Of a stretch of DNA of 64,000 nt, positions 17,601 to 20,600 are shown piece after piece. The stretch is from a virus. Its lineage: Duplodnaviria; Caudoviricetes. Where the stretch lies: positions 1,515 to 65,514 of IMG/VR virus record IMGVR_UViG_3300044728_000202, one strand, 5' to 3'. The translations under genes and the position numbers were made by a program. Position 1 is the stretch's first letter. Every line of letters starts with the position of its first letter. The notes beneath the pieces were generated by a model, which was not told where the DNA came from, made no database searches, and saw nothing but the letters and a program-made list of their open reading frames with translations.

Positions 17601-20600
17601 AACATCGCCGCGAGCACCGGGTCGATACCAGCTTGGCGCAACAATTCCTCCTGCGGCACGGAGGATCTCAGATCTCGCGGCTTGCGCGGTGATTTCGCCA
17701 TTTCGAACCCTCTGCCATATCGCGTCGATTGCAGCGACGTTGCGGGCCTGTGCCTTAAACGTACTTGTGAACAGGCCGCGGACTGCCTCCCATGTAATCG
17801 ACTGGAGCTCGCGCGGCAAGATGCCGAGCTCGGCGGCGAGCTCGCGGTGGGCATCCGCGATCAGCCCGTAGCTGCCGCTGGTGCCGGAAATGCCGACGTT
17901 CTTCATCGACCGCCAATTGCGGTCTTGGTCCTCTTTCGGCGGCGAGGTTCCGAAGTTGTGGTTGACCTCGTATGAGGCGCCGGACAGGGCGCGGAGCAGC
18001 GCCGCAGCCACCGCGTGGGTGTCGATCGTGATGTCGCCGTGGCGGGCCTTCGGAGCCAGGATGTTGTTGAAGAAGTTCCTGACCTTGTGCTTCATGCCCA
18101 TGCGGCGTGAAACGTTGGCGTAGTCCGGGTCGCGGATCACCGCGACGGCCTTGCCGATTTCCGACAGCGATCCCCACGCGACATTGTCGACGAGCTCGCC
18201 GACGAAGTTGCCCTCCGAGCTCACCTCGCGGTGGCGCGGGTCGTGGTAGGTTTGGTCATAGATCCTGACCCACATTGCCTGCAGCTGGTGCACCTTGACG
18301 TGGTCGGCGTACTGCTCGGCGATCTGGTCGAGCGTCTTGCCGCGGATCAGGTTGAGCCAGGCGACCTTGTCCGGCTTTTCGAACAGCTGGTAGCCGGTCT
18401 CGCCCATGGCGTTGGTCCACGGCGACTTCGACCGGAACGTCATAATGTCGAGCACGCGCTCGGCCAGGCTGACGTTCTGATACCAGTCCTTCTGCGGCGA
18501 CAGGGCGGCCAGCACGCCAGCGATGACGTGATCGGGCAGCTTGTAGCGCTTCATCCAGTCGTCGGTGATCTTGCGGGCGCCGTCGTACCAGAGCTTGGTG
18601 CGGTTGCGCTGCTCGGCCGGGATCTGGTTGTAGAGCCAGCGAAGGTTGTCCTTGATGTGCTCCTTGAACACCGTCGCGATGTGATCGGCGCTGCGGTTGG
18701 CGATGCCGCGCGGCATGTTCACGTAGGACGCGATGATCCGCATGTTGTGGCGGAAGGCGCCCTTGTTCGGCTCCGCCTTCATCGATTCCGTGCTGACGAC
18801 CAGCCGCTCGGCGATCGGGTCCTCGGTCTTCGAAACCAGATCGGGGAAGCGTGTCGAGATCCGAACCGGGCTGTCGCCGTCGGCCTGCACCGACGACTTC
18901 GGAACCTCGCGATCCTCGAAGTCGGGGACGCGCGCCTCGAGATCCTTGGAATCCTCCTCCATCTGCGCGACATGGTCGGGGTCCCAGTCGCCCGGCGTCT
19001 CTTCGGCGCCGTTCATCCAGTGGACCCACGCCTTGATGCGCTTGATGCCGACCGCCGCGGCGACCGCCGTGCGGTTGTTGCCCTCGTTGAGGAACGCCTC
19101 GCCACGGTGGTTGACCATGACGAAGACCGGGTTTTCGTTGGTGTAGCCCTTGTCTTTGACGCTCTCGATCACGTCGTCGTACTTGACCTGGCCGGGCGCC
19201 GGCTTCTCGCGATTGCGGCCGGGCAGCTTGCGGAGCTCGCTGACCGGCAGGAACAGATCCTTCTTCATCCCGGCGAAGGCGGTCGGCGTGCCGCCGAGGC
19301 CGTGCCAGCCGGATTCGCCCTTCATCATCTCGCGCTCGGCATTGCGCTTCTTGCCGGCCAGCCAGTCGCCGCCGGGGTTGTCGGTCTGGTAGCCGGAAGG
19401 CTTCAGATTGGGAGTGCGCGCCTCCAGCATCTTCGGGCTGGCCGGGTTGAACGCGCCGGAGTTGAACACCGATTTGATCTGCTCGGGATCGAGCGCGACC
19501 CAGACCTGTTGCTCCTTCATGTCGACGGTGCCGCGCGGGAACACGATGCCGTCGTAGCCCTGCGCCTTCAACCAGCCGCGCAGCGGCTCGGTCGAGCCGC
19601 GGGCGATCTCGCCGCTGTCGCCGTGCACCCTGCGGATCTCGCGCGGGTCGTTGCCGGCCGCCGACTGCATCTGGTCTAGGAAGTCGTCGAACGTCGCCGG
19701 CCGCCACGGGTTCTCGATCTTCAGATAGACCGGGTAGACGGTGCCTTCCTGGCCGGCGTAGCTGCCGCCACCGCTCGGCAGGTCGGAGAACCATGCGCCG
19801 ACGGTGTCCATCGACCGCTTGCGGCCGACGATCTCAACCGATGCCAGTCGGTTGAAGAAGTCGAAATCGCCGAGCTTCTTGCCGTCCTTCGACCACACAA
19901 TAGAGCCGTGATACATCACCTTCGGCTTGCCGTCGGGCTGCGTCACGACGCTCTTGCCGAACCACTTCTTGAAGGTCTCGAGCCCGGTGTTCCACAGCCC
20001 GCCGGCCTGCGGCACGTTGGTCGGCTCGGGTATCGGGGCGGCCGCCTTCGGCGTGTCCACCGGCCCGTCTCTGAGCTCGGCGACCGATGGCATGGTGGCG
20101 TGCTGGCGCACCCGCTTGTTCTGCGGATCCGCGATCCATCCGTCGTCGCGGCGGATCACCGCCTCGACCTTGACGAACCAGTTGCCCTTGGCGTCCGGCG
20201 GGAAGAAGCGGACGACGCGGTCGTGGCCGCCGTAGCTGCGCACGATATTGCCAGGCGTGAAGTACTTGGCGAGCTTGGCGGTGGCGTCGACCCGCGCCTG
20301 CGCCGCCTTGCTCAGCTTTTTGGCGGGTTTTTCTTTAGGTGCTGGTCGATCTTCACTCGGCTTCGCAGCCGGTCCTGTGCCTGCGCCAGCATCACGTCCC
20401 GCTGCGGGCCGGGGGGCAGCTGCGCCATTTCGTCCCTGAACGACCGCAAGATCTCCTGGGTGGCGAATGGGTTCGGTGGGTCGATGAGTTCCTGCGGCCG
20501 CGATTCTTTCGGCATGTTTGGCAACGACCTTCTCGTAAGCTGCCTTGACCTCGGGGATATCCATCAGCGTCGACGGGCCGCGGCCGATGGCATCATAGAC

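Follow-up and report, generated by a model that had tools for sequence, protein, structure and literature searches.

A small +1-frame gene inside a giant phage polyvalent-protein gene and its predicted partnership with the adjacent JAB-like domain

The window analyzed here is the whole of a 64,000-nucleotide (nt) stretch of DNA from a virus (Duplodnaviria; Caudoviricetes), positions 1,515 to 65,514 of IMG/VR record IMGVR_UViG_3300044728_000202, with a guanine plus cytosine (GC) content of 65%. Its minus strand carries a giant virion-protein gene that consists of a single open frame, and within this gene, directly after a JAMM/JAB-like domain, lies a small open reading frame (ORF) that is read in the +1 frame of the same strand. 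On account of its Pfam matches (Hydrolase_2, Peptidase_M15_4, ART-PolyVal, DUF7178, and LPD39), we refer to the giant as a polyvalent protein in the sense of PMC5512222. The features on which the analysis is built are the following, with protein positions given in amino acids (aa):

14631..26507, minus strand: giant polyvalent virion-protein gene, 3958 aa, containing the nested small gene
20508..21116, minus strand: JAMM/JAB-like domain of the giant (approximately aa 1798–2000), ending where the nested gene starts
21060..21062, minus strand: conserved Glu codon (aa 1816), invariant column E54 of alignment A2; this Glu is predicted to be the catalytic one in the JAMM motif
20895..20933, minus strand: metal-binding motif HNHPSDLSLSEPD (HxH..S..D; aa 1859–1871), also in alignment A2
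20528..20534, minus strand: GAGAAGG, a purine run resembling a Shine-Dalgarno site, 12 nt ahead of ATG 20515
20312..20515, minus strand: nested small gene in the +1 frame; translation from ATG 20515 gives 67 aa and ends at the TGA at 20314..20312
20312..20524, minus strand: longer version of the nested ORF, 70 codons from the alternative start TTG at 20524..20522
20465..20488, minus strand: LIDPPNPF motif of the small protein (residues 10–17), the most conserved element of its family
20312..20524, minus strand: giant-frame reading over the nested gene, a linker rich in Ala, Pro, Gly, and Arg (..HAERIAAAGTHRPTEP..PKEKPAKK) that connects the JAB-like domain with the next domain

The small ORF is thus an embedded gene in the strict sense, lying fully within the giant gene, on the same strand and in a different frame. 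The original prediction, made from the letters of the stretch, had placed a 67-aa ORF here with ATG 20515 or TTG 20524 as start, and coordinates, stop, and +1 frame were all borne out. The GAGAAGG element that it had reported ahead of the ORF was found at 20534..20528, 12 nt from the ATG and 3 nt from the TTG, and the translation of the giant across the ORF (...HAERIAAAGTHRPTEPIRHPGDLAVVQGRNG...) reads as quoted there, in keeping with its description as an off-frame-like linker. The codon signature that it had described was also recovered: GC at the first, second, and third codon positions amounts to 0.67/0.40/0.81 when the nested frame is read and to 0.81/0.67/0.40 when the giant frame is read, and since the giant gene overall has 0.66/0.48/0.86, it is the nested frame that follows the genome's normal pattern. 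We scored the giant frame against the alternative frames by codon log-likelihood in sliding 60-codon windows over the 11.9-kilobase (kb) giant gene. An alternative frame outscored the giant frame at only 3 places: at the nested ORF 20312..20515 (+11.5 for the nested frame, −31.9 for the giant frame), at 17747..17391 (+13.7 versus −38.7), and at 24114..24362 (minus strand), where the +1 frame was weakly ahead (−2.8 versus −15.0). Same-strand alternative-frame ORFs of at least 50 codons are common in the giant gene (n = 50), so that ORF length is by itself uninformative, and it is the frame-specific codon signal together with the existence of homologues that sets the nested ORF apart from chance. 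The third site lies in a low-complexity part of the giant rich in Pro, Ala, and Gly, and its +1 signal is probably compositional. Runs of A occur at both ends of the dual-coding stretch: AAAGAAAAACCCGCCAAAAAG at 20316..20333, and AAA inside GCCAAACATG at 20517..20519 (both minus strand).

The domain that ends where the nested gene begins was assigned from its motif and from structure prediction. In alignment A2, which comprises 6 very divergent sequences, residues E54, H97, N98, H99, S106, and D109 are invariant. The canonical JAMM motif has a spacing of x7 between the second His and the Ser, and in the domain described here this spacing is one residue shorter. The AlphaFold model of the domain (predicted local distance difference test, pLDDT, 77.7) gave JAMM/MPN structures as all of its best Foldseek matches (expect value, E, 0.02; probability up to 0.99), and the top 28 rows obtained with VIA-align were likewise all JAMM/MPN, the best being AMSH-LP (Z 7.4; root-mean-square deviation 3.6 Å; 129 residues aligned). 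The structural matches include AMSH-LP, Sst2, Rpn11 homologues, and RadC; the PDB sequence profiles returned no match for the domain. With moderate confidence, we assign the region upstream of the nested gene to the JAMM/JAB-like fold on the strength of the motif and this model.

We then characterized the small protein. It is predicted to consist of an extended N-terminal tail carrying LIDPPNPF, a helix (residues 20–32), a PPGP turn, and a second helix (residues 37–62). Residues L10, D12, P14, and F17 are invariant in alignment A3 of the family, and the ORF of the window is intact and keeps the family-invariant residues. When 1.84 billion representative proteins were searched exhaustively with phmmer, 2 credible homologues emerged, both small and free-standing: P0010 (54 aa, E 2.5e-4; MEYLIDPPLPFDT..FLREMQALPPG..) and P0011 (52 aa, E 8.2e-4). 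The gene of P0010 begins 3 nt past the stop codon of a gene for a 560-aa protein, with GGAGGA ahead of it. This 560-aa protein is MuF-like at its N-terminus, continues with a linker rich in Pro and Lys, and ends in a domain with HHNHPGSRSFSYAD that matches the domain of the giant just 5' of the nested ORF (BLASTP 2e-9). P0011 comes from a 1.2-kb contig in which one frame is open from end to end and reads ..KEAYDKLVADLAKQIRTGSPAAGHPLDVRHPGELA.., parallel to the giant of the window, and the small ORF occupies the +1 frame of this contig-long open frame. A 1425-aa repeat protein (P0009) with E 3.5e-41 was dropped, its score having accumulated from 22 weak stretches at 20% identity. A match to sorting nexin-16 in the PDB profiles (E 0.002) spans 25 residues and is short and probably due to chance. 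In the INPHARED phage collection, neither DNA nor protein searches gave a match, the ESM Atlas gave no usable match for the small protein, single-sequence scans of viral contigs gave no close relative, and residues 1800–2200 of the giant have only distant homologues besides the window's own protein. A profile search of called proteins added nothing to P0010 and P0011, presumably since gene calling passes over nested copies. Only 2 members among the 1.84 billion proteins have been called, and about a dozen more loci were recovered by six-frame search. As far as sequence comparison can tell, the small protein represents a previously unnamed family of approximately 55–70 aa, with a LIDPPxPF tail and a predicted two-helix hairpin, that is tied to one clade of JAB-like domains.

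The six-frame searches were performed with the small-protein alignment and revealed a graded series of arrangements:

Nested at +1 in a giant ORF, the small ORF approximately 140 aa past the HNHP..S..D motif: L006/L010 (Breoghania corrubedonensis DSM 23382; giant of 5141 aa), L007, L009, L011 (Ciceribacter sp. L1K22), and L033 (85-kb metagenome contig)
Nested at +1 in a giant ORF, immediately behind the HNHP..S..D domain: L004, which among the nested loci is the window's closest relative
Tail-overlapped: L020, in which the JAB gene spans the whole small gene and stops 20 nt beyond it
Partly overlapping: L008, in which a portal gene is followed by an SPP1-gp7/MuF + JAB gene and then by the small gene, with an overlap of 38 nt
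Partly overlapping: L021, L024, and L025, with the small gene at the end of the JAB gene
Separate: L002 and L022, unnested, with the small gene after the JAB gene

The nested arrangement is therefore present in 6 further records (L006 and L010 counted as one), which represent about 5 independent lineages besides the window. Overlapped cases are all at +1 except L024, which is at +2, and at loci with a closed host frame the homologues are free-standing. Conservation of the frame in relatives, which the original prediction had named as the test of its proposal, was found in all of the nested records, each with the same +1 ORF after the same JAB-like domain; its claim that the ORF directly follows this domain extends beyond the giants, since the small gene also stands next to the ends of the shorter JAB-ending genes in the last four lines of the list. 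In a set of 401 sampled genomes of the class containing Breoghania, the JAB-like profile matched 7, and a small gene was found at or overlapping the end of the domain in all 6 intact JAB loci. Altogether, the small gene and the JAB-like domain are linked at every locus found with sufficient upstream sequence, except for an orphan small gene (L034) that has no JAB domain within approximately 1 kb upstream. The seventh JAB locus of the sampled genomes (L029; G015:C1:254627-255106) is a pseudogene broken by TGA and TAA codons, with no small partner detectable downstream, and looks like a decayed copy of the JAB and small-gene module. L022 has its JAB gene and small gene in one and the same frame, with a single stop codon between them.

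To assess which frame is under selection we compared the nested copies with each other. Nucleotide divergence at small-frame positions 1, 2, and 3 was 0.45, 0.43, and 0.57, and in the closer nested pairs it was 0.21–0.34 versus 0.45–0.55 at position 3 of the small frame; amino-acid identity was 38% in the small frame versus 25% in the giant frame. The pair formed by the window and L004 behaved in the same way, with a divergence of 0.57 at the small-frame third position versus 0.42 and 0.36 at the other two, and an identity of 43% in the small frame versus 32% in the giant frame. The high third-position divergence and the higher small-frame identity indicate purifying selection on the small protein even when it is nested, and the same pattern shows that the similarity in the small frame is not a by-product of conservation in the giant frame. 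We also resampled synonymous codons of each small protein and computed the chance that the giant frame would be open. This probability was 0.12–0.36 per lineage, with a product over 6 lineages of 4.9e-5, and thus the continuity of the giant across the small gene is maintained as well. Recognizable domains flank the dual-coding stretch on both sides in the host frame, and the nested arrangement persists across JAB domains that are more than 1 substitution per site apart. A +2 arrangement would be closed in most lineages; the +1 bias is thus accounted for by the +1 frame being the likeliest to stay open, and no frameshifting is needed to explain it. By these comparative measures the dual-coding segment is real and conserved, with both frames maintained, and the nested ORF is very probably a genuine, selected gene.

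The start signals differ between the arrangements. Free-standing and partly overlapped copies have classical sites (given as site, spacing in nt, and start codon: GGAGGA-7-ATG, GGAGGTGA-5-ATG, AGAGGTGA-7-ATG, and GGAGG-9-ATG). Nested copies have AAGGAG-7-ATG (L006), GAGGAA-8-ATG (L011), GGGAG-9-ATG (L033), AAAGG-13-ATG (L007 and L009), and GAGAAGG-12-ATG (window), and in 5 of the 6 nested lineages an ATG lies 7–11 codons ahead of the motif with a Shine-Dalgarno-like site upstream. A scan of the region 5' of the nested gene detected no sigma-70-like promoter. In the mechanism that we propose, the small protein would be produced by ribosomes that start internally on the mRNA of the giant, at ATG 20515 and downstream of the purine-rich Shine-Dalgarno-like site, and ribosomes in the giant frame would read the same bases as a disordered linker.

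Strict linkage and adjacency suggest a specific partnership between the small protein and the JAB-like domain, which we regard as likely. Among polymorphic toxins, JAB toxin domains are paired with dedicated immunity proteins, and MuF proteins are carriers of such toxins (PMC3482391, PMC5576092, PMC5512222). Among the relatives described here, an N-terminal MuF trafficking domain is present in L008 (TIGR01641, E 3e-17), P0012 has a weak Phage_Mu_F match, and Pfam detects none in the giant of the window. By analogy with the immunity protein of a polymorphic toxin, the small protein could bind the adjacent JAB-like effector and neutralize or gate it in the producing cell or lysogen; as a separate polypeptide, it would not need to travel with the injected polyprotein. 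The original prediction had likened domain and partner to toxin-immunity cassettes, and three observations from other loci agree with this idea. First, L020 (7463..9800; G003:C101) contains, after a PBECR3 + JAB polyvalent gene, 4 paralogues of the small protein (7463..7678, 7776..7985, 8619..8828, and 9039..9254) interleaved with an Imm33-like gene (8147..8479; Pfam E 5e-37) and a DUF4265 gene (9314..9799). Second, in L021 (7542..8436) and L022 (6816..7634), a gene for a 200-aa JAB-like protein is paired with the small gene as a free-standing unit in a chromosomal context. The unit is preceded by CorA or DAP epimerase and followed, on the other strand, by GtrA, a synteny common to the 2 genomes. 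Third, there is the orphan L034. The paralogue array with its Imm33-like gene, the free-standing pairs, and the orphan suggest an immunity-like neutralizing partner, and we put the chances that the partner acts as an inhibitor or immunity protein at close to even. The complete proposal, namely a real embedded gene whose product is a partner of the JAB-like domain with a putative neutralizing role, we consider reasonably probable, giving most weight to the gene and the partner. Upstream of the paralogue array, L020 also carries a 1355-aa LPD22/MuF_C polyvalent gene.

Several observations weigh against this proposal. The Shine-Dalgarno-like site of the window is weak and spaced 12 nt from the ATG, and L004 has no ATG ahead of the motif, offering only TTG codons without a good site. 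The assignment of the JAB-like domain combines a motif with middling structural scores (the Z of 7.4 and Foldseek E of 0.02 given above), and the Pfam RadC family (PF04002) stayed below its gathering threshold (13.6 bits versus 22.1; E 0.065; 1 of 6 members), for which reason the domain is termed JAB-like here and is not counted in PF04002. With a pLDDT of 65, the model of the small protein is only moderately reliable, and the protein matched no known immunity family or solved structure in Pfam, PHROGs, NCBIfam, or the PDB sequences. Finally, known JAMM enzymes often need activating partners, and a partner need not be an inhibitor.

The last point leads to the alternative that survives best, in which the small protein is a positive partner of the JAB-like domain, that is, an activating subunit, a substrate adaptor, or a helper in folding or assembly. 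Several of the JAMM enzymes among the structural matches function only together with partner subunits, as in Rpn11-Rpn8, CSN5, and BRCC36-KIAA0157, and the linkage evidence establishes partnership but not its sign. In small phages, moreover, the pair belongs to the head module, where it is flanked by the portal/MuF genes on one side and a DUF2213 gene on the other. However, the pairs in L021 and L022 are free-standing and lie outside any phage head module, among housekeeping genes, which disfavors a role in head assembly, and multiple paralogues that share an island with Imm33-like and DUF4265 genes, together with an orphan copy, are typical of immunity genes and not of cofactors. We thus consider a positive partner less probable than a neutralizing one, but a serious rival to it.

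A different objection concerns the phage of the window itself, in which the nested frame could be a relic: a small gene that was swallowed, now serves as linker-coding DNA, and is no longer separately translated. The weak and badly spaced Shine-Dalgarno-like site of the window and the missing ATG of its closest nested relative, L004, would fit this view. However, the ORF is intact with gene-like codon usage and the family-invariant residues kept, the divergence between the window and L004 is still highest at the third position of the small frame, and the arrangement has persisted across the deep divergence of the JAB domains noted above. These features make a relic improbable.

Still less probable, in our view, is that programmed +1 frameshifting from the giant frame produces, beside the full-length protein, a truncated polyprotein ending in the JAB and small domains. 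The +1 relation found in every nested case and the lack of an ATG before the motif in L004 are what this explanation would predict. However, no slippery sequence common to the junctions was found, and stop codons of the small frame lie 0–14 codons upstream of the proposed starts, leaving little room for a shift; for these reasons, internal initiation is the likeliest route and +1 frameshifting an unlikely one. Moreover, free-standing homologues start with a classical Shine-Dalgarno site and ATG, the exhaustive phmmer search returned no in-frame fusion of JAB and small domains, and the +1 bias is more simply explained by the frame most likely to be open. That the ORF arose by chance in GC-rich DNA, or that the linker contains a compensated double frameshift or an indel from assembly, might be entertained in view of the 50 alternative-frame ORFs and of the flanking A-runs that could host indels, but the comparative data (homologues with significant E-values, the same nesting in independent assemblies and cultured-strain genomes, free-standing homologues where the host frame is closed, and third-position divergence that favors the small frame) rule out chance, assembly error, and a recent compensated frameshift for practical purposes and make the A-run indel idea unnecessary.

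A further question is which frame came first. Codon usage of the small frame is normal and the giant reading is compositionally aberrant (rich in Ala, Pro, Gly, and Arg), which is why the small frame appears to be the older one and the large gene to have overprinted it. The giant may have swallowed its downstream partner gene by losing a stop codon and reading through in a permissive frame, and the series from separate genes through a 38-nt overlap and whole-gene tail overlap to full nesting suggests such a stop-loss route. What follows the nested gene differs between giants, being of the LPD39 type in L006, L007, and L011 and, in the window, a domain without assignment followed by ART-PolyVal, so that the JAB domain and its nested gene behave as one module. 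The tree of the JAB domains is too poorly resolved to separate a single origin of nesting from repeated origins.

From this ORF and a second one, the original prediction had proposed a rule by which effector domains carry a nested cognate partner, and it had called for a survey of other polyvalent genes. The second nested ORF of the window (17477..17701, minus strand, +1 frame; wider signal 17391..17747; peptide MAKSPRKPRDLRSSVPQEELLRQAGIDPVLAAMLESNLPLTREQYLES...) has the codon signal described above and a 79%-identical homologue (P0015, called as a 72-aa gene; P0014 is a 60-aa call from the window's own sequence), and no relatives in the viral contigs or fetched loci. One further giant, the 5141-aa protein of Breoghania, was surveyed by a blind codon scan, which yielded exactly 2 islands in the +1 frame; one of them was the LIDPP gene, recovered as a positive control. 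The other is an ORF of 98 codons (L030 10836..11132; gene nt 6362..6658; +25.4 versus −23.3; MSWKEQARAHWREFQPKRFAALKTSGKLD...) between 2 methylase-like regions of the giant. It has no Pfam family and no other homologues in the 401 genomes or the viral contigs, and its similarity to the 17477..17701 ORF is at most weak (E 0.01). The recurrence part of the rule thus gained support from both giants, the second ORF in Breoghania being unrelated, and the pairing of a nested gene with a domain was established for the JAB case only. Nested +1 genes seem to recur in polyvalent giants. A broader reading, which we offer tentatively and hold to be somewhat doubtful, is that such giants may routinely carry +1 partner or antidote genes for their effectors and grow by stop-loss read-through of the downstream partner gene, in the sole frame kept open by GC-rich coding DNA, and fusion to the next effector; the range from separate to fully nested states and the second islands in the window giant and in Breoghania are consistent with it. 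If this were true, some inter-domain linkers would be hidden and still functional genes missed by annotation pipelines.

The arrangement can be compared with several known systems. In the Rz/Rz1 spanin genes of phage lambda, a small gene with its own start lies within a larger one in the +1 frame, and the 2 products are functional partners. The gene described here is likewise nested wholly inside a larger phage gene at +1, but its host is a 3958-aa polyvalent virion protein instead of a lysis gene, there is no sequence relationship, the small frame looks ancestral while the host reads a disordered linker, and unnested and partly overlapped forms also exist. As in the viral overprinting of phiX174 and MS2, 2 frames of one stretch are kept and one product is compositionally odd and probably disordered; the direction, however, is reversed, with the reading of the large gene odd and apparently newer and the codon usage of the small gene normal. 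The similarity to MuF polymorphic toxins (PMC5576092; PMC3482391) lies in L002 and L008, which have a MuF/SPP1-gp7 N-terminus, a variable C-terminal enzyme domain, and the small gene directly downstream, and in the mixture of small-gene paralogues with an Imm33-like gene in L020. In contrast to those systems, the putative immunity gene of the giants lies inside the putative effector gene in another frame instead of following it. Toxin-immunity pairs with JAB domains have been described as Tox-JAB-1/Imm65 and Tox-JAB-2 (DUF4329)/Imm-NTF2, in which the JAB domain serves as a delivered effector, and a RadC-type JAB is listed among the domains of polyvalent proteins (PMC3482391; PMC5512222). Our modules resemble these pairs in combining a predicted JAB-fold domain, with E, HxH, S, and D motif, and a dedicated downstream protein, and differ from them in that no Pfam JAB threshold is reached and in that the partner is a predicted helical hairpin of approximately 55–70 aa with a LIDPPxPF tail. 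In full-text literature searches we came across no earlier description of genes nested within those for polyvalent proteins.

Phages and conjugative elements are believed to inject polyvalent proteins as weapons that combine several effectors, and the nested gene is a candidate regulator or antidote for one of their effector domains. The finding therefore bears on how producers cope with effector domains and on how giant genes are assembled, the series from separate to nested copies illustrating how a neighbor can swallow its partner gene. It also defines a new small-protein family together with a clade of JAB-like domains, and it serves as a warning that standard gene callers miss real genes inside polyvalent giants.

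A last observation concerns the small-phage locus L008, in which the gene after the small gene (4434..5888) encodes a DUF2213 protein. Below threshold, the N-terminus of this protein matches the 2'-5' RNA ligase superfamily (E 1.8e-4) as well as Acb1, an anti-CBASS protein (E 4.2e-4; 20.5 bits versus a cut-off of 27); the protein may be a 2H phosphoesterase fused to a head protein.

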